The notes: generated from the letters alone by a model not told the origin. DNA of 64,000 bases from Octopus vulgaris (GCA_951406725.2 OX597821.1:99758001-99822000); one strand, 5' to 3'. Numbered from the stretch's first letter, positions 3,589 to 50,231 are shown. Translations and numbers: made by a program.

Positions 3589-6500
3589 AGCAAAGAGAAT
3601 GGAGTAAGCAAGTCCTTTTATTTCATTTATTTGCAGATGTTTCATCAAACATTGGTCTCATGAACATTGCTACATTATGCAATAATATATGTAACCATTT
3701 ATACATGAAGTGTCCTAGACACAAAATCAAAGATCGATTCTTTAGAACCATGTATAAAGGTTATTTGAGCAAATAATCTTTGTGCATTATTCTGGAGAAT
3801 CATGTATTCTTTTCTACTCTAGGCACAAGGCCTGAAATTTTGAGGGAACCGGGGGAAGATTCGATTAGATTGACCCCAGTATGCAACTGGTACTTAATTG
3901 ATCGACCCCAAAAGGATGAAAGGCAAAGTCGACCTTGGTGGGATTTGAACTCAGAATGTAAAGACAGACGAAATGCTGCTGAGCATTTTGCCCGGTCCGC
4001 TAACATTTCTGCCAGCTTGCTACCTTTGTTGTGGCATATATTATTGCATAATGATATAGTGTTATCATAAGAGGCAACTCCAAGGATTGCCAGCATGATG
4101 GACATCTGAATGCAAAAGACTTCATTAGAAAACACATCCCAGCACAGCATGGAAAAGCAGATGTAAAATGATGATATACCTAATTAATCTTCTCATTATC
4201 ACGTCTGATTTCCAAACTATCCTGTGTTAGACAGGTCATTGTGATCTGCATCACCTCTTATTGGGAGCTGCTACCCCTTTATGATTAGGTACTTGTACAT
4301 ACCATTTGGCTTAGTTTCTACAATGGGATGATATCTTTAACACCAAACACTTTACAGGGTGTACTGCGTGTGCTTTCTTGTTGCACCAACATGTGAGAGG
4401 TTGAAGAATCTTTAGTGAGACAAGCCTAAGGGAGCTCATAATCCTATACTCTCTTTGTCATTTACTCAACTACTTCCCACTGTGAACAGTAGGTGGAGGT
4501 GAAGGCTTGTACACACAAAATGTAAATTTTGAAAGGGAATAATGATGGGAGAAATGCCATAAATGGGTATTTGAGAAGAGAGAGGGATACTTTCTACTAT
4601 CTACATTGTTTTAGAATTAAACTGGAATGTAAATTTAAAACTGCACATATAAATATTGAGTTGATGAAAGACACTACCATGTACTGCAAGTCAGCTAAAT
4701 TCTGTTGTGATTGAATGAAATCTTCCACAATTCTTAGTGACATTTCATTTTGTTTCTTTTCTATTCTTCACTATAGTTTTGTTCTATAGTTCAGTTACTC
4801 TGTCACTCAAATGTTCACTTGTTTGAATTGTTTAATGACATGTATTTCAAAATACTTTTCCTACTCCAAGATTCACTCAATTCTGACCTGATTGGGAGTA
4901 TTTCAAGACTGTTATATGCTTTGAGTAATGTTTTAACATGACATCTTATTTTAAGTTAAACTGAAGTATAATGTAGTTTGGTTTAATTTTTGTTGAGAAG
5001 TACGTCAAAGAAAGGTGTGAATAGTTTGCAAAAGTTAGACTTGTTAATTAAAAATGTTTTTGTCTAGACTAAAATTACTTAGTAACTTATGGTTAAGGGC
5101 TTTGATGTTAGTATAGAAATCCTGTATTCGTTGTCAAGGCCTATTTGTTCTGGTTGCTTCAGTTTTCCTTTTGCTGTTTTGGTGGCAGCGTGGTCATCTT
5201 TAAAAAAAACAAAACAGTAATCTAAATCTCTTGTTTCATTCATTCATCCATCCATCCATCCATCCATGACCAGTTAAATTTTGGAAAGGAAAAAAAATAA
5301 ATTCTGTTTCATTCTATAATTTTCTTATAACCTGTATAAAGCATCTCTCTCAATACTATGCACCCTTCAGTTGGATCATTTAATGCCTTGTGAATGAATT
5401 TGATAGATAGAAACAAGTGGAAGCCTGTTGTGTATGTATACATACATATGAATATATATATATATATATATTTATGTGTGTGTGTGTGTGTGTCTCCCTA
5501 CTACTGCTTGATAGCTGGTGTCAGTTTCGTTTGTAGTTCAGCAAAAGAGACTAGGAAAATAACTAGCACTGGGGTAGATCTATTGAACTAAAACCCTTCA
5601 TGGTGGTACTCCAGCATGGCCACAATCCAAGTGAAATAAGTAAAAGATATATTATGTGGTAAGGGTTCAACAAGTAGAATGGCACTTGACCAGCAAAGAG
5701 AATGATGATAATGTTACAAAAACCACAACTCTTGTTCAATACAGTTACGCAGGGTTTTCTGGTTGGAACATTAATTTATTTCACTGATTTACTTCCCTTG
5801 TGTTTTTCTTTTCGTCCTCTTCCTTATCAGTGTCCCTTGTTTAAATGTCACCTGTTTTAAAAAGAAACTGACAAGCAGTCTTGTTATCTGTTTGAAAAAA
5901 AAAAAAAAAAATTGGAAATAAATTAATGTTTCAACCAGGAAACCCTGGGTAGCTATATTTAACAAGACATGTAGTTTCTGGAATGTGACAGTGTTGATAA
6001 CCCAGAACTCAGGTTGAGTGCTTCTCTAGAAATACCCTACTTTTATACCATGCCAAGACCTAAGATATATATTTGTTCATTATTTACATTTGCCGAATAT
6101 TTGTCTTCATCTTGTTTGTTGTTAACACGTTTTGGCTGATGTACTCTCCAGCCTTCATCAGGAGTCTTGGGGAAATTTTGAACCTGGATTCTCATTCCTA
6201 AGGCATTTTTCAATGTTATTATTATTATTATTATTATTATCCAGGTCACTTCCTGGAATCGAACTCGAAATCTTGGGGTTAGTAGCCCGTGCTCTTAATC
6301 ACTACACTATATGCCTGTAGGCATCGTTGTTAAGAGCGCGGGCTACTAACCACAGGATTCCAACTTTGATTCCAGGCAGTGATCTGAATAATAATAACAA
6401 CATCGAAAAGTGCCTTAAGAATGAGAACCCAGGTTTGAAATTTCCCCAAGACACCTGATGAAGGCTGGAGGGTATATCAGCTGAAATGTTGTGTTAACAA

Positions 6501-6608
6501 CAAACAAGATGAGGACAAATATCTGTCAAATGTAAATAATATACATAATTCCTCATCTCTTAAATAAAGAACTGTATATATTTGTTGTTATATATATATA
6601 TGTTGCTG

Positions 6609-6645
<37 letters not shown>

Positions 6646-9600
6646 CTGCGAGAGAGAAGCATCTGTATACTAATCAGATCTGTGAAACCATTGATAATAA
6701 ATGTTATGTGATAATGAAATATGAAGTATTCTTTTCCTGTTTAAAAATTTTATACCTTACATTTCCAATAACAACTTTTCCTTTTCTCTATTAAATTTTA
6801 GGCTGAAAGCAAGTTCCGGAAAGCAAGTTAGTTATAGTCATTTATTTATATTATTCTAATTTTAAAAAGTTATGATCACAGGTTTTTTATATTTGTATAT
6901 GTCTTATAAACAAACACACACATGCATGTAGACTTCACATGTAGACATCTAAACAATATTCACGAACAAATATAGAAGTGATAGAATGATGTTTTATGAC
7001 CACAGATTAAGCCCGAAACCTATTCAGGGGCTTAGATATTATGTAGGTTAATAAATTACATGTTAGTTTGCCCATGAAATATTTTAATATATCTGTCTTA
7101 AAACAGATACACAGTTACATACACACATAACATATCCACAGATACATACACACACACACATTCTTTTATATATTTCAGCCTAAAGGCTGTGGTTAAGCTG
7201 TAAAGTTAGTCATGGCCTGAACCAATTCTAGTTGAAGCCTGTCTCAGTATACATATATACATGCACGCACACATACATACACACCTACATACGTATGTAC
7301 ATACATAAATACGTACACACACAGACACACATACATGTAATATATATATATATATATATATATTTATTTTATAGAAGGAGCTTCTACAGGACTAGAACTG
7401 TTTCATTCAAAAGAAATCATCAGGAAGCTCCTGATGATTTCTTTTGAATGAAACAGTTCTAGTCCTGTAGAAGCTCCTTCTATAAAATAAATTAATTTAC
7501 TCTGCTATGTATTGAGTACCTTATTTACTGTGGTTAACCCCGACTCAACCCGGGACCTACATATATATATATATATATATATATAAGCAAATGAATAATA
7601 TTGCTTTAGCTGCTGTACTTGTATGAAGAGGAAGAAGTGAAAGATGGTGAAATGAACCGAAACTGAAACTTAATACTCTCTTGTGAAAACTTTAAGTTTA
7701 CAATTTATTAATTATATTATCAGTAATCTGCTGCTGCTCAGTCTTATTATATCTTTTTAAGCCTGTACTATGTAGTTAGAAACAGTTTTTATCATAGTAA
7801 TATAATATAGTCTTTTTTTTTCCTAAATTTAGATTTGTTTTGAACGAATTTTCTACATTTCTTGTTTGTTAATTTTTTTCTCTAATTCAAAATGTATATT
7901 TTATTCTTAGCATGTATGGGAAACTATTAAAATATACTTGTTGTAATTTCACTAATGATATGATGGCATTAGAGAATATGAATATAAAACTGTTTTAAGA
8001 ATGATTATATATATATATATATATTGTTGGCACTCCGTCACTTATGACGATGAGGGTTCCAGTTGATCCAATCAACGGAACAGCTTGCTCGTGAAATTAA
8101 CATGCATGTGGCTGAGCACTCCACAGACACGTGTACCCTTAACGTAGTTCTCGGGGATATTCAGCGTAACACAGAGTGTGACAAGCTATATCTTTTTGAA
8201 TTACAGGCACAACAGAAACAGGAAGAAAGAGTGAGAGAAAGTTGTGGTGAAAGAGTACAGCAGAGTTTGCCCCCCCTCCCCGCTGGAGCCTCGTGGAGCT
8301 TTAAGTGTTTTTGCTCAATAAACACTCACAACGCCCGGTCTGGGAATTGAAACCACGATCCTATGACTGCGAGTCTGGTGCCCTAACCACTGGGCCAGTG
8401 CACCTCCATAATATATATATTATGATGAGATATATGTTTATATGCATGCATGCATATATATATATAATATAAATTGGACATGGGCGATTGTTGTATTCTC
8501 TCTTGTCTTGAGGTTCACAGCCAAACAACTGGTTGGATTCATGTGAAAAATGGCACACATACGGAGACAGGTGCATAGATTGGAATGCAGTTTGTATTTT
8601 TTTCCTAACCCCCATACTTATCGAGAAAATCGCTTAAAACTTTTTCTTATGGAATTTCCCTCTTTCTTCTGCCATCAAAACAACCAGTTGCTTAGAAGCT
8701 GTTTTCTGATGGGGTGGGATCAGGAAATTTTCATATAGCTGGAGGCTCCAATCGAAACAGTAGACCCGAAATGATAAGGTTGACAAACGCTGTTATAGAT
8801 TATGCCTAACCGAAAATGATCACAGCCACGTCATCCAAACAGACCGGGTGAAACTGGCTTAGCTGCTAGTATATATATATATATATATATATATATCTTA
8901 GTTGTCTCATATGACACACAAGTATATAGTTTATCTGTTACAAACCAGGATACTTATAATGAATGTAGAAGCATGCACAGACACACTATAGGTATCCTGG
9001 CTTGTAATTGTTAAACTATGTACCTATTTGTCGTATGAGGCAACTAAAAATGGTTAGCAACTGGGTCGGTATCAGCATAAAGTTCTGTCTCAGAAAACCT
9101 ATCCAACTTATGCAGGCATAGAAAAGTAAATGCAAATTGATGATGAAGTTACGTATAGAATTTAATTAATATTTCTTTAAATGTGAGTGTATTTTTGGTT
9201 AATTTAAAGAAAAAAAATTCTTAATTTATTAGTTTATATTTATGAAAGTAAATATAAAAATATCTTAATTTTTTTCTTATGAAGTGTTAATCTTGTACTA
9301 AGTATTAAACCTATGGTTCCTGAGACAAATAAGTATGTTGATTGCTATATATGTGACAAGTTAATTCTCATTACTTTGTTATTGATAAATAAGCTTAAAG
9401 CTAGTATTTATGACACTTTGTGAATTTTTATCTTTTAATTATTGTGTTTACAGTTTCCTTTATACCTATTAATTTCGTCTCTGTTTGTTCTTAATTTCTG
9501 TCAGATGATGAATACCAAAATCTTGTTGACAAATATGCAACAGTACGAGATGAATTTGAGAAGAAAATGTCTCAATCTTGTGATGTAAGTAAAATGTTGC

Positions 9601-12600
9601 TATCACAGTACTTTGCTATGAAAATGGCAGCTGATAAAGAAGCATGATAAATATTTAGATATCATTTTCTGAAATCATTCTGATATTTGATTGGTAAAAA
9701 AGTTTACATGCAATCTTCTTTTCAACTCTATTAAATGCCATTTCCTATGTAGACATAAATACCTCAAGCTTTTTAATGTGTATAATATTAAGGTTAATTA
9801 CTCTTGTCTAGATAACATCACATCCGATTTTGCATGTTATAACAGAAAAAGTAGCACATATCTTCGTACCCTTCATCTCAGAACCCACCCACAACTGCTG
9901 AAATCTATCTACATGTCCACTGAGGAGATTTTACCTTTCTAAAGCATTGGTTTGTGAACCTTACACCACTTGATAATATCCCAAGAAACTACACAGGATT
10001 TGAAACCAACAATTTCAAGGGAAAATGCACTCAGCATATATACTCCTTTAGGTTCAGAGACGAAGGAAACCAACCAATCTGTCCCATTTTATCTCGTGAC
10101 TTCAGGATCAAGAACTGTCCTGTCTTGCGAGACTTGATGTATATTTGACAAAAACCTTGTCATAGTTTCCCCCAGAGTGCACAATCACTGATTTCATCTC
10201 TCTGAGAAACTACACATACTACAAGAACCCACTGTGTCCCTTAACAAGAAAACTGAACTTTTATATTGTTGTCATCAGTGAAGATTGTCATTGCTGTTAT
10301 CAGCTATTAGTTAAGTTTTATAACTTTTAATGAAATTTTGCTGAACTTAATGTTGGAATTTCTAATGAAAGCATGAGAGATGACTCTGATCTACTGCATC
10401 AAAGTTCTCACCTGACCAGTTGTCTTTCAACAATATTCAGTAGCTGCTACAACACGTAGCAGTTTTTTAAATTTCAAATTACATGATCCAGTACTGACTT
10501 AATAAGAATGACCTATTTGCATAATCCAATGATAATTAGTCTTCTTTAGAGCACATGTCTACCTTGCCTCTTAAAACTACAGCATCTGAAGGATTAGACA
10601 TGTTTTAGGTCTGTAAAATTTTGAATGATGCAGATCTAAGTCACAAACTATTAATACTGATAATACAAACATTTAATTTGTCCTCATCTTATTTGTTGTT
10701 AACACGATGTTTCGGCTGATATACTCTCCAGCTTCATCAGGTGTCTTGGGTTCTCATTTCAAACCTGGGTTCTCATTCCTAGGGTATTTTTCAATGTTGT
10801 TGTTATTATTAATATTATTATTCAGGTCACTGCCTGGAATTGAACTCGGAATCTTGATGTTAGTGGCCTTTGCTCTTAACCACTACACCATATATCTGTG
10901 GGCAATTATAGCATAGTGGTTAAGAGCGTGGGCTACTAACCCCAAGATTCCAAGTCAATTCCAGGCAGTGACCTGAATAATAATGATAATAATAAGATCG
11001 AAAAATACCTTAGGAATGAGAACCCAGGTTCGAAATTTCCCCAAGACACCTGATGAAGGCTGGAGAGTATATTAGCCAAAACATTGTGTTAATAGCAAAC
11101 AAGATGAAGACAAATATCCATCAAATGTAAATAATATACATAATTCCTCATCTCTCAAATATAGAACTGTATTATTTAACTCCATGTTGTGTTGAGTGCT
11201 CTTCTTTGTTTATGCATACTTACACATGTGTGTGTATATGTGTATATATGTGTTTGTGTGTGTCTGTGTATATATGAAGTGGCATCAAAAAGTTCCTGGA
11301 CTAGTTGCCCCACAATTCATTCTCCAGTGCCAGGCCATCAAAAATTCTACTGTGACATTTTGAAGCATTTGTAAGAGGATATTTGGTGAAAGCAAAATTG
11401 TAAGAGGACATTTGGTGAAATCTGTAGAGCGTGAAGAATTGGATTCTTCGCAATGACAATGCACCCTGTAACTGAGCTCTCCTCATTCATGAGTTTCCCA
11501 CCAAAAACAACATGGTATCACTTCCACACCCTCTGTATTCGTCAGATTTAGCACCTGCAGACTTCTATCTCTTGCGCAAGATGAAAACGTAGCTCAAGGT
11601 TACCATTTTAACATTGTTGTCAAGATCCACAGCGGGTCGCAGAAGTTGACTTTCGGGCTAGATTCCATAAGTGACAAGAACGTGGGGACTGATGTATTGT
11701 TGCACAAGGTGACTATTTTGAAGGAGATGATGCTGAAACTTAGTTAAATAAGTTATTTTTTATTAAACATAACTAGTTTGGGAACCATTTGACATCACCT
11801 CATATAGAGTGAGAGAGTTGCGGGTTCAGTCCCACTGAGTGGCACCTTGGGCAAGTGTCTTCTACTATAGCCTCGGGCCGACCAAAGCCTTGTGAGTGGA
11901 TTTGGTAGACAGAAACTGAAAGAAGCCTGTCGTGTATATGTATATATATATATATGTTTGTGTGTCTGTGTTTGTACCCCTAGCATTGCTTGACAACCGA
12001 TGCTGGTGTGTTTATGTCCCCGTCATCTAGCGGTTCAGCAAAAGAGACCGATAGAATAATTACTGGGCTTACAAAGAATAAGTTCCGGGGTTGAGTTGCT
12101 CGATTAAAGGCGGTGCTCCAGCATGGCTGCAGTCAAATGACTGAAACAAGTAAAAGAGAGTAAAGAGTATGTATGTATGTATATTGTTGGATATGTTTGG
12201 AAATGAGAGAAAACTGTACTCAGTACATGCTGTAGAATTTATCGTTTATTCAAAGTTGGTGATTTACTTCTTAGGCACTCTTGAGTTTCTTGCATTGGGC
12301 ATTCAGTCAGGCTGCTGTATAAACAAATAAAAAAGACAAGACACCTGGGGCAACAACAACGTGAACCAATAATTCTGTGTTCGTGTGTGTGTGTGTGTGT
12401 GTGTGAGTGAGAGAGAGGGAGGGTATGTGTGTGTGTGACCTGCCTCTCTTTAACCAAAATGGTAATATAAGTAGCACTTGTAATAAAAACATTTGCTGCC
12501 TATTTCACTTCCAAGTTCACATAGCACACCTCCTACGGATCTCCTCACATTCATTTGACAAGTGTGTAAGCATCTCCAATTACCCATGTTTCTGACACTG

Positions 12601-19600: not shown

Positions 19601-22600
19601 CTGCAGTCCAGTGACTGAGGCAAATAAAAGATAAAAGATACTATAGCTTTCATTCAATACAAGCCTTGTGAGTAGAGTTGGGTTGATGGAAACTATGTGA
19701 AAGCTTGTTTGGTGCACCGTACTGGTAATTCAAAGGTTTATAAGTTAGAACTTTTGTTTTGATAGCAAACAATTGAGATTTATTTTCAGTAAACAACAAA
19801 ACTTAAGATTTGTTCAGAAGATTTTTTTTTTTTTTGAGACTGTAACTGAGTAGTAGATTGGTAGAATCAGTTGGACATCAAACAAAATGTTTTGTGGTAT
19901 TTAGTTATATTCCATAAAATTTTGAGTTCAAATTCCACTGAAGTTAACTTTGTTTTTCATTCTTCTGGAAAAAAAAGTGTCAAATTCTGGGGATGATCAA
20001 ATCAACTCTACTGGAAAATTTTGCACTATTTTTTACATTATCATCGTTGTTGTAGCATTTTTCCATGTTCGCATGGGTTGGATAGAGTTTATCAAGGCAG
20101 GTTTTCTGTGGTTGGATGCCCTTCCTGTTGCTAAATTTCACCTGTTTCCAAGCAAGGTAGTGTTTCCCCATGGGCAGACACATTTACATGGGATATTGGA
20201 AATGAAGGATATTCATTTGCTACAATCATGCAATGTCAAGACTGGGAAACAACAAATATACACTCACATCATACATACATAAAAAGCACCCAATACACTT
20301 TGTAAAGTGGTTGACATTAGGAAGGGCATCCAGCCATAGAAACCTTGCCAAAACAGACAATTGGAGCCTGGTGCAGCTCTCTGGCTTGCCTGTTCCTGTC
20401 AAACCATCAAACCCATACCACTATGGAAAATGGATGTTAAATGATGATGAAGATGATGTATACAAAGGGCCTTTATCAGTTTCCGTCTACCAAATCCACT
20501 CACAAGGCTTTGGTTGGCCTGAGGCTATTGTAGAAGATACTTGCCCAAAGTACCATGCAGTAGATTGAACCTGGAACCATGTGGTGTAGAAGCAGGCTTC
20601 TCAACCACCCAGCCATACCTGCATTTATGTTAGAAATCATTATGAGATGGTTGTCGGCAATAAAGTGGCTTTGGTGATCTTTGTGTAACAGATTTAACCC
20701 ATTATTTATTCTGCATGACATTCTGAAGAAAGCTGTCTTCTAAGTTTTGAAGTATTTCTTTGTATTGAAATTGCTTTTTTCTCAACTTATTTTGTTCGTT
20801 GATGCTAAAGTATTGTTGATTTGTAGGTCCAAAAGAATTTGTTGAGCCAGACCTTTCGTGTTTACCTGTTACAAGACCCATGTCTCCTGAGATAGTCGAT
20901 AAAAAAGATGGTTCATTAGAAAAGAAAAAGGAAGGTAAAGAGAAATGAGATTTAAATTTATCAATATTTATTAGTTGTTTGTGATTTTAAATTCTGTTTA
21001 TAATTGTAATTAGTTTCCAATATTGATTGGCAGTCTGGTCTGGTCTCATATTTTGGGTTTGGAAGTTATATTTCCCTGGACCTCTGTATGATGACTCTGA
21101 CTAACTGATAGTCTTTCTTAGTTTAAGTTAGTGCTGTACATCCATTAAGTCTTTTAAATTGTCTCAGTCATTTTGAAGATGAAAAGAAAAAGAAAAACAA
21201 ACAAAAACAACAAAAAGTAAATACAAAAAAAAAAAAAAAGATGTGGTTGCTAATCATGAAAAAAGATTATTTGCTAATTCACCTGGTGTGGTGTGTATGA
21301 GGTTAATTAGCTACATGCACACTGATTTGTTTTGGTCAATTTGGCTGTTCTTGTTCCTCTACTTGATTGCTAACTACTATGGGCTTTCTGGGTGCATGCT
21401 GTTGCTGTTACCGCCACTGCTGTCTCTACTTGCTACTGTCACTTGGTGGGAAGTCTTTCGTTGATTCCTGATTGACTTTACCTCAGTGTTGTAGTCTTGG
21501 TAAGCAATCCGTTTGCTTACATTTGTTACTAACTTCTAAACACTTAACATGTCAAACATTGCATATATATATATATCTACATTTTTTTGGGGGTAATTAT
21601 TACCCTTTTCTCTCTTTCTCTCTTGCTATTTAAAAAAATACCCAAAAAAAAAACAATATTTTTTTTTTACTTCTATAACTAACTGTTCTCTTAAATAATT
21701 AACTCTTCTTTCTTTAATTTACAATTTTGATATATCCTGATTTCAGCTTTACATTGATACAAATGACAGTAAAGTTATCTCCGTTTGTTTGAAGTGTAAT
21801 GATGACTGATTTCTCTGAGTGTCATATGTTTTTGAAGAGAAGAGAAATGGGAAGGGAAATGTCTCTCATTGATATTTCATTGTAATTATTTTAATACTAT
21901 GATGATATGTGCTTGTGAGATTTTATTTCAGGAAAGTGATTATTTGTTTAGTAGAGTGGCTATCATATATATTTATGTAGATTTTCTTTTTAAAATGAAA
22001 TGATTAAAAATTCATTATAGCACATTAGAGAAAAAAAAACTTCTTTAAGGAATCGAAAATTCTGTGAATTATCATTTTGTAACAATTTAAGTAACTATGA
22101 TCAACATTTCAACAGCTCTTATCTCTTGATAATTTCATAGCTGTGATTCTGTAATTGTTATAACAGCTCTTATCACCTGATAATTCTCATAGCTGTGATT
22201 AGGATCTTAATATATCCTATTTCATTCAAATGTTTTTCCTATAATTCACACAGCTGATATCATTTGACCCTGCTTCTTATCCACCACACTAAAGCTCTTG
22301 CTTGTTTCATATAATTCTTTTTTTTTTATTCTTTACCACACTTTTGTCCTTTTTTTTTTCTTAATTTTTCTCTTGATGGAATGATGCCTGTTTTATATCT
22401 TTTATTACTCTGGGGGAATATCCTTAGTATCTGTCTTTTACCCAAACTTTCTGCTCCCTTCAATTGCTTCCATACCATAGTAAGAGGACAACATTCTTCA
22501 GAATTCTTTTTGACTCTTGTTTGATCACTTTGACCATGAAAATTCAGCATTACAATTTTTTTCTCATGATCTTGCAACCAAGTGCAACCAGGTTCTTTAT

Positions 22601-24969: not shown

Positions 24970-25007
<38 letters not shown>

Positions 25008-28170: not shown

Positions 28171-28227
<57 letters not shown>

Positions 28228-28608: not shown

Positions 28609-28657
<49 letters not shown>

Positions 28658-29031: not shown

Positions 29032-29081
<50 letters not shown>

Positions 29082-31554
29082 TAACCTGTATTAATAATTC
29101 AAAATGCAATATATTTTCATAGTATCTATTGACCAGATTCTGCAGTATTTTCCTCAAAAGTGTGATTAAGTTAATGGCCTACCAAAGCCCTTCCATTATT
29201 CCAAAGTGAAGTAATAACTCTTGTTTCGATTTCTTTTGAGTTGATTCATATACCTTCTCTTGCTGCTGCATATTATTGGAATAGTTCTTTGTATTCTAAT
29301 ATTGATGGCAATTATTATTGTATAGTTATTATTGATGGAAATTATTCTTCCATAAATTATTCAGACCTAGACGGTTTATAAACTGCCTTTTGGAACCTTA
29401 ACATTATGTGGCCTTATTGATTTTTCTGTTCGATAGGAGCTTGAAAACAAAATCTTGAATGGTAATTCACTTAAATTTATAAAAAAAAAAAAGAAAAAAG
29501 TTTATTGCAGACGTTGGTACTCATATATGCTTTTGAAATTCCATTATTTAGAAATTAAACCATTGATTGCTCAACCTTTTTCATTTAGTGGCATATTATT
29601 GTTTTGTTGGTAACTTTTACTGATGATTCCTTCTGGAAATGTTTTCATTACCTGACTGTGATTCTGTATAACCTTACTAACTCTAGATGCACATAAAATA
29701 TGACAAAAAAAAAAAAAAAAAGAAACAAAAAAAATCATTAGTACATTAATAGTAGTAAATGTTTCTTTTGTGATATAAATAGCAAGATGATTTTTTTTCA
29801 AATCTTCACATCGATTCTCAGGGTGAATAACCCTACTTCTCTCTTCCCCCACATAGAAATTATTGTAGCGATGTTTATGCTTTCAAGCAAGCACAATTGC
29901 AATTTTGTCAACACAGTGTTTTATTTTTTTCTGTCTTTGCAAGGTGATGCACACTTTTTCATCCCCTACCCCCCGTTTAATTGCAGATAGTTCTTTCATT
30001 TAGTTGTTAACCTATGCTTCACTGTGTCAGCACTAGTGTTTATGAAATGCTATTTACACATATTGACGAATAATTGCATGTAAACATATTTCAAATTGTT
30101 TGCACAGTAGTGTTTAAAGACAGAAAATATTGGCAGCAAAGTGTGTTTCTTAACAACCATTGGCAATGTTAGCTGAATCATCACATATAATAGTGTGAGC
30201 TGTTTTAATGAGGGATAAACTAGCTTATATTATAATTTCAGATTATTAAAAGAAAAACTAAAAACTTTTTTTTTTGCTCTTTTATGTTTGGTTAGGAAAC
30301 TCATTAAACATTGGATTTTCCATTAATTTTCAATTAGTTTTCAATAATCCTAGATTCTTATAGCTTTAGTGATGGACAATTTCAATATCCTAAGTATACT
30401 GAACTAAACCTGTTGCTTCATCTTTCTAACTGTTTCGACTTGTTTCTCTAATCCTTTCTCTCCTGTGTAGCATCATTAGTTCCTATCTACAATTAGTTAT
30501 ATGTTTAAATTAACCTTATATGAAGTAGTCCAGATTTTAACTTTTTAGCTGTATACTTTATTTTTTTTTTTTAAAGAAAAAAAAAAAATCACGGTTCTTT
30601 TGATTTTATTAGGAATATACTTGTTTTGGCAGGGTTCCTAAAATCTAAGAGAGACAAAAAGAAGGATTTGAAGAAAAAGAAAAAACGTGATAAAGAAGAA
30701 AGTCAGTAAGTACCCATATCTCTTTTTTTTCTTTCCAAAGTAAATTATTTACATGGCAGAATCATTAGTGTGTCAGAGTAAATACCTTGTGATATATATT
30801 CTGAGTTCAAATTCCACCGGGGATCAGCTTTGCCTCTTCTCCCTTTGGAGTTGCAAGTGCTGGGGTTGATGATATTGACTAACTGCTTTCCTTCAAAATT
30901 GCTGGCCTTGTGCCAAAAATTGACATTATTGTTCTTCTTATTAAGGTGGCAAGCTGGCAGAATTGTTAACATGCTGGGCAAAATTCTTACCAGCATTTTG
31001 TCCATCTTCATGTTCCAAGTTCAAATTCTGCCGAGGTCAACTTTGTCTTTTATCCTTTCAGGGTCAATGAAATATGTACCAGTAACACACAGGGGTCAAT
31101 GTAATTGGCTAGTCCTCTTCCCCCAAATTTCAGGCCTTGTGCCTATTGTAGAAAGTACATGACCTTGCAGGTGGGGTCCAGATAGAATTTTCTTCTGGTC
31201 GAGTAACCGATCCTGCTCAAAAGGTCCCTGAATAAGGGTCGTTTAAGGATGTTGAACGAAACGTCCATGTTTCCAGAGGTGAATTATTCAAACCCCAAAT
31301 AATCCCTCTCAGCACATGGCTATCATGCTCCCCCACTACTTCTGCTCGTGATCAGAGATGCACATATCGTCAGCCACCAAGGGACGTTCTCAATTGGTTA
31401 AAGTCGAGCAACGGACAAGCAAATCTGTGGTATTGAGCAGAATATTTGCTGTAGCCCATCTTTTATACCAAGACAAAACAATTGTACATGATAACACTTC
31501 CAATCAGTTAAGATCAGAAGCCACGAGAGCCACTGCCTGGTACTGCATCAGGGC

Positions 31555-31590
<36 letters not shown>

Positions 31591-32340
31591 CATCATCATC
31601 TTTAACAATGTCTGATAAATGTCTCTTGCTATGTCTGGTGTAATGTCATCTCTTTCATATCAGCATTCAATATCATGCCTTGATTGCTTTATTTCATGAG
31701 ATTACAATAACATTGTTGTGTCTTGGGAGGTGATTATGCCCATAATTACTGGCATAATGACCCTTCTGAGATACAAAAAAGTCTGTTTCAATAGACAGTT
31801 TCATATCAAGAATCTTGTAAAGCAAATACAAAAGCTACAATATTGATTTTGCTAAAAATATTGCTAATGGTTTTGGAATTGAAATTAAATTTTAGAAAGT
31901 AACTTTATGTCTTTATTTATTTTTTTATTTATTTTCTTTATCTCTCCTGTCTTTTTATTTCCAATGAAAGATTAAGCAGTTAATTTACTTAAGAGGAATT
32001 ATTAAAATTAAACAAGAAGTTACTCTTTAGTTCAGCTTGCACAGTCCTCTGTTAATATTTTTTTATGCTTGAAGTTTGTTTTACTACTGTTGTTACATTA
32101 CATCACACACACACATACACACATACATACTCTCTTTTACTCTTTTACTTGTTTCAGTCATTTGACTGCGGCCATGCTGGAGCACCGCCTTTAGTCGAGC
32201 AAATCGACCCCGGGACTTATTCTTTGTAAGCCCAGTACTTATTCTATCAGTCTCTTTTGCCGAACCGCTAAGTGACGGGGACGTAAACACACCAGCATCG
32301 GTTGTCAAGCAATGCTAAGGGGACAAACACAGGCACACAA

Positions 32341-32371
<31 letters not shown>

Positions 32372-35300
32372 CATATATACGACAGGCTTCTATCAGTTTC
32401 CGTCTACCAAATCCACTCACAAGGCATTGGTCGGCCCGGGGCTATAGCAGAAGACACTTGCCCAAGATGCCACGCAGTGGGACTGAACCCGGAACCATGT
32501 GGTTGGTTAGCAAGCTACTTACCACACAGCTACTCCTGCGCATACGTACATAAATTTATTCTTAAACAAGAATGTTGCTAACTGACATGGAAGTTTTGAC
32601 CAATTAAGCCATTATCATATTACTTAACTGGCCAAAACTTCGAAGTCACTGTCAACAATATTCTTGTTTAAGAATAAATTTGTACTCTACAAAAGTACAG
32701 GATAACCCTCTCAGATTAATGCAAAATTGTTTTTACTATAGCTGAACATAACAGCAAACATTAACAGTAAAAAGCACCCTGTCCACACTGTAAAATGGTT
32801 GGCACTTGGAAGGGCATCCAGCTGTAAAAATCATGCCAAAATTAACATTGTCTGTGCTTCTGCCACATAAAAAGCACCGAGTCCATTCTGTAGAGTAGTT
32901 GGTGTTAGGAAGGGCATCCAGCCATAAAAACCCTGCCAAAGCAGACACAGTAGCCTGGGATAGTCTTCTACCTGGCCAGCTCCTGTCAAGTGTGCTACCC
33001 ATGCTTGCATGGAAGACGGACGTTAAACGATAATGATGATGATATGCATACATGTTCCCACACACATATCTCTTTACTCTCTTTTACTTGTTTCAGTCAT
33101 TTGACTGTAGCCATGCTGGAGCATGTCTTTAGTCGAGCAAATCGACCCCAGGACTTATTATTTGTAAGCCTAGTACTTATTCCATTGGTCTCTTTTGCCG
33201 AACTGCTAATTTACAGGGATGTAAACACACCAGCATCGGTTGTCAAGCGATGTTTGGGGGGACAAACACAGAGACACAAATGTATACACACGCACATGCA
33301 TATATATATATATATATATATACATATATACGATGGGCTTCTTTCAGTTTCCGTCTATCAAATCCACTCACAAAGCTTTGATCGGCCTGAGGCTATAGTA
33401 GAAGACACTTGCCCAAGGTGTCATGCAGTGGAACTGAACCCAGAATCCTGTGGTTCATAAGCAAGCTACTTACCACACAGCCTCTCCTACGCCTATATAT
33501 TGTAAAAGAGGATGTGGTAGAGAAATTAGAACATTGATCAGTTGATACAGAACTGAGTTTGAAAAACATATTCTTGGTTTGGCTGATGCCATCTCTCCTG
33601 ACTAAATGATAAAGAAATATGTTAGTGCTTTAGGTAATGAAATTCCTCCAGCTGGGAATCACAATCACTGACTTAGTTCACAGTGACCTTATGGTTTCAT
33701 GCTATTGCTATTTCCACAATGACGACAACAATATTACCAACAACATTTAATTTATTATGCTGTATCATTATTTAATCATTCAATTCCTGTTTATATGAAC
33801 TTCATGTCATTTTTATTGATCTTTCTTGTTTTTTTTTTGTTTTTTTTTTCCCTACAGAGAAACTACAAGTAGCAATGGTGTAAGTACCTTTTTAAATGAT
33901 TTTTTAAATAAATTCTTGTTCAATAGTTTGGGTTTGTATTTTTACAACAAATTAAATATAGTATATTAAGTATATAACAACAAATTAAATTCAAAGTGAA
34001 GATAAACTTACATCAAACTTATCTTTCTGTATTGTTAGTAAGGACATTTTGAAGTCCACTCTTTGTTATTGTTATGAATATAATTTTTTGATCATTTAAT
34101 AGTTAATGTTAATTACATTTTGTAATTTTTTTTTATTAGGTAATACCTGATGTTGATGAAGAAGGTTACAGTAAACAGCCCGATACTCTTTTAGACTGTA
34201 TCCTTATCATTGTTGGCAGAATTATGAGCCTGCCTGGTCTTTACATTTTGGGTTCAAATTCTGCCAATGTCGGCTTTGCTTTTCATCCTGTTGGGGTTGA
34301 TAAATTAATGCCAGTCAAGCACTGGGGTCACTCTAATCAACTAGTTCCCTCCCCCAGAATTTCAGGCCTTGTGCCTATAGTAGAAAGGATTATTATTATT
34401 ATTTTTCTTATTATTATAGACGTTGCACAATATACAATATTGTGAAGTTGTCGACTGAAGATATTGTGTCTACCTGGAGTTTGTACTGTTTGTCAAGTTG
34501 CAACAAGGACCTCAGACAGACAGTACTTTACGCAATATGCATGCAGTTCCAAGTAATGCTGACTTTTGCAATACATTTAGATTGTAGGGTATTTCTAAGG
34601 TTTTTGGATGTATTTTCAGATTGTCAAGTGGTGGTGGGGTACAAACACAGGCACAAAGACACGCACTCACAGATATTTATATACATTTATATAACAGGCT
34701 TCATTCAGTTTCTGTCTATCAAATCCATTCACAAGGCTTTGGTTGGCTTGAGGCTGTAGTAGACACTTGTCCAAGTGTCATGCTGTGGGATTGAACCTGG
34801 AACCATGTGGTTGGGAAGCAAGTTTCTTACCACACAACCACACCTGTTATTATTATTATCATTATTAAGCTGGCAGAATCACTAGTTTGTTGCATGAAAT
34901 GCGTAGCCTGTTGCTAAGTTCTGAGTTCAAATTCTGATGAAGTTGATTTTGCCTTACATCCTTTCAGGGTCAATAAAATAAGTACCAATTGAATACTGGG
35001 ATTGATGTAATCAACTCATCCCCACCTCTCTCAAGCTGCCCTTGTGGCAAAAGTTTGAAATAATTATCATTATCATTATTATTGAGTGAGAGAGCAGTGC
35101 ATGCTATCAAAGTGACACTGGGGCACAAATATACAAAGCCCAATATACCCATCATGACTACCCATCCCATAAGGGTACACCATGCTCATCATCACAGCCA
35201 TATGTGCACTACAGGGTGGTCTCATATCAAGGTAAACAGCGCATGTCCTTGCAGGTGGGATCCAGTTAGAATTTTCAGGTCAAGTAGCCCATCCCGCTCA

Positions 35301-35803
35301 AAAGGTCCCTGATTAAGGGTTGTTTAAGGATGTTTAATGAAACAGCCATGTATCCAAAGGTGAATTATTCAAACCCCAAAGAATTCCTCTCAATGCATGA
35401 CTATCATGCTCCCCCACTACTTCTGCTCATGATCAGAGATGCACATATCATCAGCCACTAAGGGACGTGCTCAATTGATTAAAGTCAAACAACTGACAAG
35501 CAAATCTGTAGTATTGAGCAGAAGATTTGCTGTAGCCCATCTTTTACACCAAGACAAAACATTTACATTCTAATGCTTCCAATCAGTTAAGGTCAGTAGC
35601 CATGAGAGCCAGCGCCTGGTATTGCATCTTGATTTAAGATATTTTACTTTTATCATCAGCTTCATTGTAGTTATCATTGTCATCATCATACATCAGTTTT
35701 CCTTGCTGGCATGGATTGGAGAACTATGACTTATATATGTTCCGTTCGTAATTATTACAAATGAAACATATATTACAAAAGCACTTGTGCCAAAATTTGA
35801 AAC

Positions 35804-35836
<33 letters not shown>

Positions 35837-37373
35837 CATTATTATTATTCATTAGCAGGCTGGGCGAAATGCTTAGCAACATTTCGTCTGCTGCTACATT
35901 CTGAGTTCAAATTCTGCTGAGGTCAACTTTGCCTTTTCATCCTTTTGGGTGTCGATAAAATAAGTACCAGTTGAGTACCGGAGTCAATGTAATTAACTAT
36001 CCCCCTCCCCCCAATGTCAGGCCTTGTGCCTATAGTAGAAAGGATTATTATTATTAAGACAGAGGGCCGGCAGAATTGTTAGAGCATCAGAAAAAATGCT
36101 TTGTTGTATTTATTGTGACTCATTATGTTCTGAGTTCAAATTCTGCTGGTGTTGTCTTTGCCTCTCATCCTTTTGGAGTCAATAAAATCAGTACCAGTGA
36201 AACACTGGGGTCAATGTAATTGATCAGTCCCCTTCCCACAAATTTCAGGCCTCATGCCTATAGTAGAAAGGATTATTATTATTGGTAGCCTATTTCACTA
36301 TCTTTCACATATATAAAATTTGCTGGCATTCCACTTAAAGTATTTATTTGTATCATGCCATGTGTTGTTATTGTGTAACAACTCCCTCTCCTTTCTGTTA
36401 GAGTTTTGAAAATACTATTAGTAATTAAGATTTTTCTTTCATAATTATATTTTTCTTCTAATGACTGACATGAAATATATATCTTGTTAAATCTATAGAT
36501 TTGTATTTATCCTTAACTTTTTGTATTGAACGGAGACAAAACAAGCTGGTGCTCTAGTGAAAGTGATAGTGATTCAGGTAATGTATTTTTAATTATTAAT
36601 TGTTAATTGCTGCAATATTTCATCAATTTGACCAGCTGTCATTAGTTCAAACTTACCTCTATTTGAGCCTTGCTCCCCTTTATTTTTTTCATATAGCTAC
36701 TGACGGTAGCTGTGTGAAAGAAATAATATTATAATATCTAAGATAATTAGATTGATTATATTTAGTTCAAATACATTATACAGAATTATTTATTGTATGC
36801 TACTTTATATACGACAAATATGAAGGTTTGTTTGGATAATCCAATATCTAAACACAATTTTTTCCTTTTCTTTTTGTTGTTTTACATTCATTGAAAAGCA
36901 AACAATAGCAACAGAAAAGAAAGAAGAAAAGAAGCTAAAATACTAATATGGGCAGAACAGTTTTTGTCAAAACAATTGCCTTTGCAGCATGTTAATCACT
37001 CAACTCTGGTGAATATAATGTAACAATGGTATTTGGTTTACACAGAGTTATGTCCCATGCTTAATCTCTTTACTAAGATGTATACACTTGGCCAGTAACC
37101 AACACGTTAACCTCACAGCCCTGTTGCTGTTTAGCTTTATCTCTATCGTTATAGCAAAAAAATTATACTGATATAGTTACTCTTTTACTTGTTTCAGTCA
37201 TTTGACTGCGGCCATGCTGGAGCACCGCCTTTAATCGAGCAACTCGACCCTGGGACTTATTCTTTTGTAAGCCCAGTACTTATTCTATCGGTCTCTTTTG
37301 CCGAACCACTAAGTAACGGGGACATAAACACACCAGCATCGGTTGTCAAGCAATGCTAGGGGGACAAACACAG

Positions 37374-37431
<58 letters not shown>

Positions 37432-40145
37432 TACCTCTGCTGGTGACTAAAGGCCTCTCGCTCAGAGTAAAAGGCAGACTATATGATGCATGTGTACGAA
37501 CAGCTATGCTACATGGCAGTGAAACATGGGCCGTGACTGCTGAGGACATGCGTAAGCTCGTGAGGAACGAAGCCAGTATGCTCCGATGGATGTGTAATGT
37601 CAGTGTACTTACTCGACAGAGCGTTAGTACCTTGAGAGAAATGTTGTACCTAAGAAGCATCAGTTGTTGTGTGCAAGAGAGACGATTGCGCTGGTATGGT
37701 CATGTGGCGAGAATGGATGAAGATAGGTGTGTGAGAAAGTGCCAATCCCTAGCAGTTGAGGGAACCCGTGGAAGAGGTAGACCCAGGAAAACCTGGGACG
37801 AGGTGGTGAAGCACGACCTTCGGACGTTAGGTCTCACCATGGAAATGACTAGAGACCGAGACCTATGGAAGTATGCTGTGGACACATAAGAAAACACCAT
37901 CCGAGCGTGGCCGTCTGCCAGCCTCGTCTGGCACCTGTGTCGGTGGCACATTAAAAAACACCATCCGAGCGTGGCCGTCTGCCAGCCTCGTCTGGCACCT
38001 GTGTCGGTGGCACATAAAATCACCCACTACACTCTCGGAGTGGTTGGCGTTAGGAAGGGCATCCAGCTGTAGAAACACTGCCACATCTGACTGGCCTGGT
38101 GCAGCCTTCGGGCTTCCCAGACCCCAGTTGAACCGTCCAACCCATGCTAGCATGGAAAGCGGACGTTAAACGATGATGATGATGATGATGATATATATAT
38201 ATACACATATATATGACAGGCTTCTTTCAGTTTCCATCTACCAAATCCCCTCACAAGGCTTTGGTCAGCCCGAGGCTATAGTAGAAGACACTTGCCCAAG
38301 GTGCCACGCAGTGGGACTGAACCTGGAACCATGTGGTTGGTTAGCAAGCTACTTACCACACAGCCACTCCTGCACCTAGTTGGGTATAATTTGAAAATTG
38401 TAATTGTTTTTCATATGAAAATTGAAGAAAGAAGCTCTAAATTGTTGTTCTCTTAAGCTTCGAAAGTGAAAGCTTATGGTTTAGGGATTAGGTTGTTGCA
38501 CTCATGATCGTAGCTCTGGTTCCCAGACTGGGCTGTGCATTGTGTTCACATTACTTCAGTTCACTCAGCTGTAAATGAGATCCAGCAATAGCTGGGAAGT
38601 TAACCCTGTGACAGACCTGTATCCTGTTCACTGGGGAGTGTTGTAATCTCAGCCATGGAAATCGGGTCAAGCTCCTACCTTATGAGTCCTTGGTCTCATG
38701 ACAGACCTTAGCTTCAAAATGCAGGGAGTTAAGAGAATGATTTTGTGTCTTCACTGATAATATATATATATATATATTATAGTTCAGTTGGTGTTAACAT
38801 ATTTAATGCAAAGGGCAGTAACTATATTAACCTGTTAATAATTGTGTAGTTAGGATGAAACAAGACTAATCACTAACTAATAAGATTATTTAATGAGAAG
38901 TTACTGTGAAAATTTCATGATTATGTGGAAAACCGTAAATTTATGAAGAAGAATTATGAAGTATGAAATTTCTTCTGAGAAAAAAAAAAAATTTTGTTTC
39001 GTTTGGTTCTGAAGCATTTGATTCTTGAGATGTTGTAAAATCCAGTAATTTTAGAAAGTGCAGAATCATTGCAAACTCTGTTCTTTGTTATTTACACAGT
39101 TATTACCTCTTCTTCTTTGAAAGCTGTTACCTATTAGTTTTATATTTACATTAAGATTTAAACAATATTAACTATGGAACAAAAGTGAAGACATATTATA
39201 GTTAAGATATTATTCTACTTCGGTATGACTACAGTGGTAGCAGGCCATTAATAGCCTGTATCAGATGTTAAATTTTGGAGATTTGTGCAATCTAGTGTAG
39301 GACAAAGACCACTTAGCTAGATACCTCTCCTGTGGTTTGACAACGATCTAGCTAGCTGCTAGGCTGTACTGAGCTTCAGTGTCAGCCTTGGTATGTTTAC
39401 TAAAGCTGGATGCCCTTCTCAGTGCCAACAACACCTTACAGTTTGTACTGGGTGTGTTTATGGTGCCAGTGGCACTAATGAAGTCACTACTTAAGTTGCA
39501 AGACAAAAAAAAAAGGACAGGAAAGGGAAACTCCCCACTTCTCACCATGACTAAGTGCATGTGGGTGTTAAGGAGGGGAAGGTGGTTTTATGTCAGATAT
39601 TGAGAGACTAAAGTTTGATAGAGGGACAAGAAAACAGGTGTCTTTTCATAGAGGAAATACATAGCTAGCCTATGTTATATAAGGGTGAGTGATGATAATT
39701 AGGAAGATGAAGATAAAGAAGGAAGATGGTAGTGATGGTGTGCCAGAGGAAACTTTGAAGGTAGGTGAGCATAAGAGAGGATAGGGTCAGGGAATCTGAG
39801 GAAGGTGTGTAGTTTCCTTAACAATGTGAGTAACATAGTTAGAGAGTGGGGCAGGGGTGGATGTATTCAAAGGTATGCAAGAATGGCACTGCAGTTAGTG
39901 GGGAATGTCATTTAGGAGAGGGGATACAGTGAGAGAGATAGCAGTAGCTCAGGGAGGAGAACAAATCATAAGGTAGTGGGATGCTGTCCAAAGTGTTATA
40001 CATATACAGTATGTATAATGTATGTGTCTGTATATATATTATAGTTATATCTATATATATGATATATACTTATATATATAAAAATAAGAAATACAAATAC
40101 AATTTTTTATAAACCAGATGTATTTTTCTTTTACCAAAGCAATCA

Positions 40146-46200: not shown

Positions 46201-49200
46201 TTTGCTAAATGTCTTGTGATCCCACCTACCACTCCTTTTGTATATCCGTATAGATACACAATTCCATCTGGAATTCCTACATGTTTCTTTCTCTAAGTTG
46301 AGTTTGGTTATTTCCCTTATGGTAAGCAGGGTCTTGTTTTCTTCTCAAAAACTTGAGCCTTTACTGACCTTACTTTGAAGTCTCTGATTCTAGATTTTGT
46401 TTCCATGTTTGAACTTCTAAATATTTTGTATACTGATGACCTGGTTCTTATAGCTGAATTTGTAGGCATTCCCATGGACAGGCAGGCTTAAATTCAAAAT
46501 TGTCTCAGCTTTGAGGACTATATTGAACATGATTGGGGTTTAAGAACCGAATCCTGTTGAGTCTGAACAGGCTAAATTAACCACTAAACTCATTGCTCAC
46601 TCTGACCTTGCTGGCTTCACCTCTGTACACGGTTTAAAAAGCCCTCATAAGCTATTTGTCTACTTTTAGTTTTCTTAGTGACCATCAGATTGTAGAATTT
46701 CAAACCTTGTCAGTTGCTTTCTCCAGGTCAACAAATGCCACATGTAAAAGTTCACTCTTAAGTATTTTTCCTGCTGTTGTTTCATTAAGAAAAGGGTATT
46801 AGTAGTTCCTCTTTCTAGCACAAAGCCAAACTACATCTTATCTAAGCTAATTCTCTTTCTCATCAATCATGCTGTAACCCTTCCTATAACCTTCACAAGC
46901 CAGTGTTCAAGTTGATGCCTCTGTAGTTCATTGTCTTTGTCTAGTGCACCTCCTTTGTAGCCGTTTTTGATGATGCTACTATATCGGTCATTAGATATGA
47001 CCCCTTCCCTTCTACTACCTGACTAATTATATGAGTGACACATGACCTACTTCACCAGGTATTTTAATCATTTCAGGGACAATACCTGATGGTTCAGCCC
47101 ACTTCCATGCCTTCATATCCTTCATTGCCTTTGTTATCGTGCCACTGTCAATTTCAATGGCTGGTTCCTTTTTAAGTCTCTCTCTTTTCTGCATCCTCCT
47201 CATTCAACCTCATGTAATATCACTTCCTTGATACTTTCATTTTGGTGTCAGTAAAAACAAATGTGCCATTATCATTCTATACGCACTTCTCCCCGACACC
47301 AGTTTGATTTTTTTCTTGTACAATGCCTTGCCATCCAAAACAGCCCAAGTCTCTGATATGTGTATCACAGAGCATCTTCTCTCCTTGCTAAGTATAACTG
47401 ACACTTGGTTTCTCTTTTAGTTACTTGATATTGCTTTTTGTTGTCCCCTTTCTATTCAGTCCTGTCTTGTAACTTTAAAACAAACATATATAACTATATT
47501 ATACTTATTATAATTTTAGTCACTTCAATTGATATCTTCTTTATTGTTTTTCCAATAGACAATTTAAACTATCTTACATCTTCCAATAGACAATTTAAAT
47601 TACTTTATATCATGAGTGAACCCTACCATAATCCCCTACACACACCTCATATCCCTATTGTCATCATTACATTGTTGTTGCTATTCTTGTCATGGTTGTC
47701 TTAATGATGGCTAAACTTTTATCGATATTATTACCAACATTATCATCATCATCTGAACATCCCTAATTCTGATAAAATTTAATAACTGTTTATGCAATTA
47801 TTTGACTGTTGACTGTTTCAGTTTTCTTATTAAATGTTGCAATATTTAAAGTTTGATGCTGCGAAAGGATTTTTTAAAGTTCATTTTGTCCTTAAAATTT
47901 TTTTTTTAACGATTTTTAAATATTTCTTTGTTTTCTGTCAGATTCCTTTACGTCCTGGACGGACAAGCCCTGCAACTCTGATCTCACCTCCTGATAGCAC
48001 AGGTTCCATGTTCACAACTACAGCGTCACTCGGATCATCTCGTGGTTCCAGTCCTCTAACACTTGGTATGGCAGATACTGTTCCCATGGCAGTGGCCTTT
48101 ACAGAAAATATAAATGCCTTTTTCAAAGGAACAGATGCTACCAAGTAAGTACTCAGATGTTTTCTTCTTTCTGAATCGATAAACTATCTCTCTCCCTAGT
48201 TCGTCCCACAGGATGCCCCAAGACTATTTCCACACATTTTCCCCATTCATCTTGATCTTCTATAGTGGTCCTCAGCTCCTATACCCTTTCCATACTAGTA
48301 TCCTGCAGCAAGTTGTCAATACAGGTCGTCTTCTTCCTTCCCCTCCTGATTCTTCCTTCCGTTGGTTACCAGAGCACTAGCTTGTTAGCAATTTCATTGG
48401 TGTGTCTGATGCAGTGTCCAGCTAACCTCATCCTTCTATGCTGTATTTTCAATGTTACTTTTGGTAGTCCCTGGTATAAATCAGCGTTTGTTGTGTGACT
48501 CTTCCAGGAGACATTGAGTGCCATTCTAAGCACCTTCGTATAACAAACGCCCAACTGCTTCTTCAATGCTTTAGTGAGCTTACATGTTTCAGCCCCGTAT
48601 AGAAGAACAGACTCCACTGTTGCCAGAAACAACCTCACTTTCAATTTCTTTGCTAACTTTGAACTCCATACTTTTCTCAATTTATAGCATGAGCTCCAGG
48701 CAAGAGCTTTCCTTGCTACAATTTCTTTTTCAATACTTTGTGTCCACGCACCAAGATATTTGAAGTTTTCAACTACCTTCAGCGACTTACCGTCTCTCAC
48801 TTTCACTGACACAGGCATTTCATGGTTGAATATTTGCAACTCTGTTTTCTTTGCATTACAGTACAATTCTGTTGATCCTCAGATCATAGTGCTTATGCAA
48901 TATCTATAAATAGTGCAACTTAACCTATTTTACTATGGATTACATTGCAGTTACTAAGGTAGATGTACTTGAATAGTGACATATTGAATTGATTGATTAT
49001 TAGTAACTAATTTATATTATCTCCCCAATATTATTAGAGACTTGACATAGCTGTGTGGTTAACGGGCTTGGGTTCAGTCCCACTGCACAGCATCTTGGAT
49101 GAGAGCTTTCTACTATATCTCCAATCCAATTAAAGCTTTGGGTGTGGATATTTGGTGGATAGAAACTGAAAGAAGCCTGATGTAAATTATATACATTTAA

Positions 49201-49719
49201 CCATCACCATCATTTTAATGCCTATTTGCCATGCTTTCATGAGTGCGTGGATTTTCTCCAGTGCTACTTGTAGCTTAATAAAAACAATATCGGTACAGAT
49301 ACTTTTTTACTTTTTAATGCAAAAACATTATTAAAAATCGTGAAGTATATTTGCCACCTAAATGTGGCTAACCCATAAGGGTTGATTCTACTATAGCTTG
49401 TAGTCCCAGGAAGACATCTCCTCCAACTGGCTATTGATACACTTTCTGTGCCCTATCAGTCATCTTTCCCATCTCCAGCCTGACGTGATACACACAGACC
49501 TGAGTTTCTGGGTATTGATCCGTCACCAGCGTATGACAACCACCAGCTGGCAATGTGAAGTGGTTCCCAATGCAGATATATATATATATACTTTTTTCAG
49601 TGATGAAAAGTCGCTTATCTCGAAAAAGTGGAAATAAGCAAAAATATATCTCTGAGTGAGGTATAAACAGTAGCTGCACAACATCGTGAAGTATATTTGC
49701 TACCTAAATGTGGCTAACA

Positions 49720-49764
<45 letters not shown>

Positions 49765-50231
49765 ATAATAAATATTAGGGAATAAATCCAAATTTACAGG
49801 GAAAAAAAATCAGATTTAGGATTAAATCCAATTTTATAGTAAAATATTATAAAATATTATTAGAGACAAAACCACTATTTTGCAAAACAAACAAGGAAAG
49901 ACTTAATCAATACATAAAATTTTAATAAATAGTCAAAAAAACCGCCACTACAATCGTTTCTTGTCTTGATCGACAATCTTCAGGTGGACTTCAATTTACA
50001 AGTCAGTTTCAAATTCATAATTTGAAACTGACTTGTAAATTGAAGTCCACCTGAAGATTGTCGATCAAGACAAGAAACGATTGTAGTGGCGGTTTTTTTG
50101 ACTATTTATTAAAATTTTATGTATTGATTAAGTCTTTCCTTGTTTGTTTTGCAAAATAGTGGTTTTGTCTCTAATAATATTTTATATATATATATTATAT
50201 ATATATATATTTTATATATATATATATATTT

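Follow-up and report, generated by a model that had tools for sequence, protein, structure and literature searches.

Five palindromes in an octopus locus as probable Penelope-like insertions, one family of them with a tRNA-type head

What leaves five palindromes in a single stretch of octopus DNA, each with an unpaired extension on one side? The question is raised by 64 kb of Octopus vulgaris sequence (GCA_951406725.2, OX597821.1:99758001-99822000; hereafter the window), which has a GC content of 35% and plentiful microsatellites and was scanned on both strands, 128 kb in all. A preliminary description of this DNA had read the palindromes as hammerhead-bearing members of a Penelope/retrozyme-type system. 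We consider it likely that all five are independent insertions made by Penelope-like enzymes, each composed of head-to-head, hammerhead-bearing end repeats with one tail. The layout, in which an inverted 5'-truncated repeat is accompanied by a single tail, opposite-strand hammerheads and TA targets, is the published footprint of endonuclease-bearing (EN+) Penelope-like elements (PLEs). One family, here called A, is an unusual variant within this known insertion type, with tRNA-type A and B boxes at its 5' end. At a little short of an even chance, we propose that family A is a Penelope-mobilised short interspersed nuclear element (SINE), whereby an end repeat captured a tRNA promoter and its RNA polymerase III (Pol III) transcript was pasted by the Penelope protein as inverted pairs, on the order of 10^5 times.

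The elements are labeled A1 (6079-6577), A2 (10676-11172), B (7362-7560), D (32546-32740) and C (49761-50191), with B and C naming the TA-flanked, perfect-armed pair, as the preliminary description implied. Self-BLAST returned 10 self-inverted matches in the window, all five palindromes among them, with arm identities of 79.5% for A1 (6079-6540), 82.1% for A2 (10676-11115), 97.7% for B (7362-7492), 81.2% for D (32552-32681) and 98.6% for C (49844-50191). Arms described earlier as perfect are so in B, where 61/61 ungapped positions agree, and nearly so in C (first 168/172). Every element consists of head-to-head inverted copies, the joints being variable among family A contigs. A1 and A2 are 84% alike and form a single family, and sense-strand comparisons among families A to D gave best matches of just 8-18 nt (E 0.04-0.56), so that the reported count of five insertions in four unrelated families holds. 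Equally well borne out is the one-sided extension: arm alignments restrict the tail to one arm in 5/5 elements, at 36-83 bp (A1 37, A2 36-39, B 68, C 83 and D about 59 bp, the right end of the last being uncertain). Flanks of (TA)n on both sides are found, as had been noted, in B and C, and only there; a 12-bp direct repeat flanks A1, its 12-mer being found 3 times over both strands of the window, and A2 and D have neither feature. The parts of the five elements are as follows.

6066-6077 (right copy 6575-6586), plus strand: left copy of the candidate 12-bp target-site duplication of A1 (flank-repeat scan)
6079-6316, minus strand: A1 left arm, no tail, with tRNA-type head (A/B boxes with 1 mismatch, at 6309), (AAT)n and decayed minimal hammerhead
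6319-6540, plus strand: A1 right arm, hammerhead core at 6455-6490, head in part deleted (arm alignment, core scan)
6541-6577, plus strand: A1 tail, 37 bp, on a single arm (arm alignment)
7363-7430, minus strand: B left arm, intact-core hammerhead (core at 7423, stem I of 8-9 bp), (TA)n outside (core scan)
7431-7492, plus strand: B right arm, 61/61 nt identical, cut within the 5' strand of stem I (arm alignment)
7493-7560, plus strand: 68-bp tail of B with two small hairpins, followed by (TA)n (arm alignment)
10676-10897, minus strand: A2 left arm, A and B boxes free of mismatches (10890-10880 and 10845-10836), tRNA position 1 at 10897
about 10740-10706, minus strand: A2 left-arm hammerhead
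10900-11135, plus strand: A2 right arm, its hammerhead (at 11050) altered at G12 (arm alignment, core scan)
11136-11172, plus strand: A2 tail; further copies end at 11135 or 11171-11174 (contig loose ends)
32552-32681, no strand assigned: D palindrome, 81%, hammerhead-like remnant not above chance (self-BLAST, motif scan)
32682-32740, plus strand: D tail, right end uncertain (arm alignment)
49761-49843, minus strand: C tail, 83 bp, adjoining (TA)n (arm alignment)
49844-50015, minus strand: C left arm, hammerhead at 49983-49949 (arm alignment)
50019-50191, plus strand: C right arm, hammerhead at 50051-50085, tail-less, TA-rich flank (arm alignment)

AT-rich palindromes within TA repeats, with identical arms in B and C, could also be miniature inverted-repeat transposable elements (MITEs), products of chance or fold-backs of the assembly. 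We regard this as very improbable, given that the tails are one-sided, the flanks differ between sides and hammerheads occur in excess. A read artefact is further opposed by the arms of family A, which are 83-84% alike within a copy, and head-to-head family A joints occur in the contigs of all four sequencing runs considered below.

Two further palindromes were seen in the window. The first, at 8898-9047, is about 150 bp long with 76% arms and a TA repeat at its left, and resembles a decayed MITE; it was excluded from the set because it has no hammerhead match and no obvious tail. The second, at 28360-28402, is a near-perfect palindrome of 43 bp, with fainter similarity on both sides beyond a poly-T insert.

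How would a Penelope-like enzyme produce such a structure? PLE insertions have been described as an inverted 5'-truncated copy with a 30-40 bp tail and a bias toward microsatellites (PMC8557442), with flanking duplications of 8-10 bp and a repeat plus tail that contain the first 22 codons (PMC3846280). The Penelope protein acts on both strands of AT-rich DNA, cutting and extending each, two internal start sites for reverse transcriptase (RT) bound the tail, and hammerhead cleavage is dispensable for insertion in vitro (PMC11167929). Applied to the octopus elements, (i) a GIY-YIG nuclease would cut both strands of AT-rich DNA; (ii) each 3' end would prime complementary DNA (cDNA) synthesis on the element RNA, one from an outer start site that includes the tail and the other from an inner, tail-less site; and (iii) the two cDNAs would extend inward and be joined head to head at their stopping points. 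The Penelope origin that had been proposed earlier gains support from the layout, the tails, the type of hammerhead and the TA targeting.

The centers of the palindromes bear on whether one cDNA or two were involved. A single cDNA might instead self-prime at a 3' hairpin and copy itself, with a nuclease then trimming one arm back to the boundary of the tail. For inverted joints, an origin by self-priming from palindromes has been argued (PMC3846280), the centers of A and B hold small hairpins, and the arms of B and C are identical. We nevertheless judge this fold-back unlikely. In B, it is the tail-less arm that has kept stem I intact, and a fold-back of the tailed strand would not yield the observed center if the intact stem is ancestral; because of this location, and because the joint as read from the sequence has a 3-nt microhomology, two cDNAs fit this one case better than such a fold-back. 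The variable second-arm end points of family A likewise suit two separate cDNAs better.

The insertions seem to differ in age. A recent origin is the likely reading of the identical arms of B and C, though gene conversion between arms is also conceivable. A1, A2 and D are old and decayed; for family A, age is indicated by four arms that are 83-88% alike with no excess within a copy (83-84% within copies, 84-88% between copies), and homogenization of the arms within a copy was ruled out on the same figures.

By eye, the tails of B, D and C (7493-7560, 32682-32740 and 49761-49843) each contain small hairpins and have a GG-(A/T-rich)-CCC stretch in common, and those of B and D begin with a similar 5-bp hairpin. 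These features may represent a shared protein-recognition site.

The hammerheads themselves were sought on both strands with a strict scan, which required an intact type I core and minimum lengths of 4 bp for stem I and 3 bp for stem II. It found 4 sites in 128 kb, each of them inside a palindrome (the right arm of A1, the left arm of B and both arms of C), against a mean of 0.07 and a maximum of 1 in 60 order-3 Markov sequences. A looser scan, allowing at most 1 core mismatch with no stem I test, gave 6 sites against a null of 0.6, namely 3 additional A arms, 2 in C and 1 elsewhere. Stems I and II are kept in A, B and C despite their different sequences, and the core changes in family A are mostly CpG-type transitions. 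Published PLE minimal hammerheads occur 100-700 bp apart on opposite strands, and in an assay the monomer was inactive and the dimer weak (PMC4209133, Cervera and de la Pena 2014). The octopus motifs belong to this minimal type, for which cleavage is predicted only in dimers or with the aid of protein; in these insertions they are probably passengers. The perfect hairpins can also mimic microRNA precursors: in Rfam, C scores MIR5185 at E 3e-10, below gathering.

Short non-coding repeats with type I hammerheads, together with the long stem I of B, recall non-LTR (long terminal repeat) retrozymes, which spread via hammerhead-excised circular RNAs and reportedly descend from the end repeats of Penelope (bioRxiv 10.64898/2026.07.22.740005). 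That these loci are retrozymes we find quite unlikely. Tandem monomers are present at 0/5 loci, and since the two motifs of each palindrome stand on opposite strands, one transcript carries one sense motif only. The retrozyme label applied in the preliminary description is therefore unsupported, tandem arrangement being the defining feature (same preprint).

Several results count against a Penelope-like origin for all five palindromes. A flank duplication of at least 7 bp is absent for A2 and D, and the tails of B, C and D (59-83 bp) exceed the published 30-40 bp. The claim that all the elements share a hammerhead core stands for A, B and C and falls short for D, whose motif emerges solely at 3 mismatches, where the 26 matches do not stand out from a null of 23.6, so that its hammerhead is unproven. 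Searching with the Rfam models, a check of the kind the preliminary description had suggested, gave 0 matches at gathering and no hammerhead at E<=5-10; at E<=5, neither a hammerhead nor a tRNA stands among 150 of the 151 listed matches, and four small-region scans gave neither. Folding of the single motifs was barely better than that of shuffles in 6/6 cases (z -1.9 to +0.2). Lastly, protein and contig searches, themselves weak, found no full-length partner (RT plus GIY-YIG open reading frame, ORF) for A to D.

Why, then, should family A be set apart from the other insertions? Its tRNA-type head, which the preliminary description overlooked, sits at the center of both palindromes, A1 and A2. 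With consensus motifs at tRNA spacing, an A-box/B-box scan found 7 sites with at most 1 mismatch in the window against a null of 0.0 (12 runs): the left arm of A2 has 0 mismatches and that of A1 has 1, and the remaining five sites head repeats of other kinds. In both copies, tRNA position 1 directly adjoins the 2-nt spacer, and no run of T exceeds 3 in any of the four sense arms.

Heads with A/B boxes at 2664, 8397, 18328, 32532, 34840, 38366 and 41168 belong to at least two other tRNA-derived repeat families, and D directly adjoins the one at 32532.

The abundance and end points of family A were read from contigs of four sequencing runs (four organism labels) mapped to 9160-11200 only, where 21,738-39,524 contigs were placed per run. 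Summed contig depth in the bin of the A2 hammerhead is about 10^5 times that of the flank in every run, which is not a copy number; family A is very abundant. Its loose contig ends cluster at 11135 and at 11171-11174, about 36 nt apart, and so bound the tail. Among the 15 joints listed, from a set that holds 430 more, 9 run from 10893, where the left head ends, to scattered right-arm positions, and several joints have just 1-3 letters between the arms. Across the four runs, one arm often stops at tRNA position 1-4 and the opposite arm stops anywhere, and the letters further upstream in the loose ends are heterogeneous (agreement about 0.5). As to A2 itself, contigs of three runs pass from the unique flank 30 letters into the left arm, one letter short of the 31-letter threshold for a crossing, and that of the fourth stops at 10676; no contig of the four runs spans the element.

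Because one arm piles up at tRNA position 1-4 and the other stops anywhere, a Pol III template is suggested: the main template of family A would be a short, Pol III-made RNA with a fixed 5' end at tRNA position 1, holding the hammerhead and both RT start sites. Such a template would also explain the abundance of the family. Short, dispersed and high-copy, with a fixed 5' end that bears A and B boxes, family A resembles a tRNA-derived SINE, subject to the caveats on the 10893 pile-up given below.

The frame that begins at the ATG at 11016 leads to a different account, in which family A is copied from the long transcript of a coding Penelope, whose end repeat it represents in 5'-truncated form, and its tRNA piece is an old capture and no Pol III template. 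This frame is open through the hammerhead and tail apart from stops that are private to one arm or due to CpG decay, as expected if the repeat overlaps the start of an ORF; by shuffling, the absence of any stop has P 0.015 per frame, and A2 itself has one private stop, P 0.08. Against a coding end repeat speak the near-perfect A/B boxes at tRNA spacing, the pile-up of arms at tRNA position 1-4 where they join the opposite arm directly, and the heterogeneity of the loose upstream letters. We hold this account to be possible but doubtful, and it is compatible with a Pol III template if a short Pol III RNA is produced from the coding element as well.

The proposal of a Penelope-mobilised SINE has its own difficulties. 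Mutations of A2 itself at 10894-10897 favor breaks at 10893 and account for part of the pile-up there. The loose ends have 7 more letters in common upstream of the head, which form a small palindrome with it and could mark a hairpin end of the repeat instead of a transcription start. Rfam and ARAGORN did not recognize the head as a tRNA (0 matches). A word-index search, a weak one, found no protein relatives of the family A frame, and pattern scans for the hammerhead of the family had 0 matches, whether in metagenome contigs, where two patterns were used, or in viral contigs.

At several CpG sites of A1 and A2, both left arms decay one way and both right arms the other way. This is the same change on the plus strand and possibly reflects strand-biased mutation in a transcribed intron.

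An endonuclease remnant lies between the palindromes:

9715-10290, plus strand: decayed, frameshifted linker and GIY-YIG fragment of a Penelope-like element, with Hydra-like motifs, low copy

The preliminary description had placed a decayed GIY-YIG ORF at 9680-10282 and named it alongside the palindromes. A frameshifted remnant is indeed present, identified by protein searches over 9715-10153 and by eye, from the motifs of PMC8557442, over 10153-10290; a connection to the palindromes found no support, as BLAST comparisons found no significant DNA sharing between the remnant and A to D. With stops given as X, phmmer returned 3 relatives (best E 1e-6), the best of which, P0001, aligns as three collinear pieces in three frames over 9718-10153 on the plus strand. 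The Pfam GIY-YIG match of P0001 is itself weak (E 0.12), and its feature-based look-alikes include GIY-YIG and HTH_animal clusters at 0.92, which is a lead only. Pfam gave nothing for the remnant in 6/6 frames, and word-index protein searches, again weak, were empty for the first endonuclease frame and for P0001 residues 35-195. Contig depth over the remnant is close to that of the unique flank (18-410, versus millions over A2). The remnant is real but unlinked to A to D, and is likely a separate old insertion. A 41-nt match of 78% between its end (10250-10289) and the start of family C (49970-50010), ending in the C hammerhead core, was considered as a link and treated as chance (E 0.012, 1 of 10 pairs, with others reaching 0.006).

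The surroundings of the palindromes are those of a host gene, identified by one feature:

54542-55519, plus strand: host exons with a muniscin mu-homology domain (muHD), FCHO/SGIP-like (Pfam PF10291, E 3e-15 and 1e-12)

AG/GT-bounded exons at 6802 and 9505, together with the muHD exons at 54.5-55.5 kb, bracket the elements, and on these sequence grounds the five are probably placed in introns of one FCHO-like gene, its single-gene status being our reading. The idea of a system peculiar to this gene is unsupported, since two copies within 64 kb are unremarkable for a family as abundant as A. Elsewhere in the window, frames resembling the C-terminal part of the reverse transcriptase of long interspersed nuclear elements (LINEs) were noted by eye at 37317-37886 (plus strand) and 48369-48878 (minus strand), for which Pfam gives just AT_hook (E 0.012) and DUF6451 (E 1e-4). 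A TA/TG-rich simple repeat of about 550 bp at 62474-63021 is the source of many false inverted-repeat and microRNA matches.

As the shared design is a known Penelope-like footprint, most of what the locus contains is ordinary repeat debris. The exception would be family A: if Pol III RNA is its template, it would form a SINE-and-partner pair with Penelope as the partner, and would offer a short natural template with fixed ends for studying Penelope inversions and tails, whose formation is a step left unvalidated in PMC11167929.

A comparison with known systems places these elements as follows. Full-text searches, in a collection without most subscription papers and apart from the repeat databases, listed no description of an element that combines a tRNA-type head with the two-end signature of Penelope. 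The SINE-like Pol III elements of Schistosoma (PMC6765202) are short repeats in which a Pol III promoter is likewise followed by a hammerhead; they are described as tandem repeats, whereas the copies of family A are paired in inverted orientation and have the two-end tail of Penelope. Metazoan non-LTR retrozymes (PMC7229834; bioRxiv 10.64898/2026.07.22.740005) are similarly short and non-coding, with a type I hammerhead and a proposed Penelope origin, but have tandem monomers and circular RNA as their defining features, and the five loci have no tandem monomers. Like the minimal hammerheads of metazoan PLEs (PMC4209133), family A has a helix I of 4-5 bp and nearly no helix III, along with G10.1-C11.1 and a base left unpaired ahead of helix II; B differs in its stem I of 8-9 bp and its short stem II with a U-U mismatch, and C in a stem II closed by U-A. 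The remnant at 9715-10290 shows by eye decayed CxCX5C, CxxC-E and N-CxH motifs of the Hydra-clade PLE endonuclease (PMC8557442), from which it differs as a frameshifted fragment with no RT found, its placement in the clade being tentative and by motif. The palindromes as a set resemble the inverted 5'-truncated pseudo-LTR insertions of EN+ Penelope elements (PMC8557442, PMC3846280, PMC11167929), with which they share head-to-head arms, one tail and, in A, B and C, a hammerhead within the repeat; likely further parallels are AT-rich or (TA)n target sites, a candidate short flank duplication in one case (A1) and, in family A, a repeat that overlaps a possible ORF start. Here, in contrast, no ORF lies between or beside the arms, and three of the tails (B, C and D) exceed 30-40 bp; and where TATA/initiator-like motifs are described for Pen2a, family A starts with tRNA-type promoter boxes.

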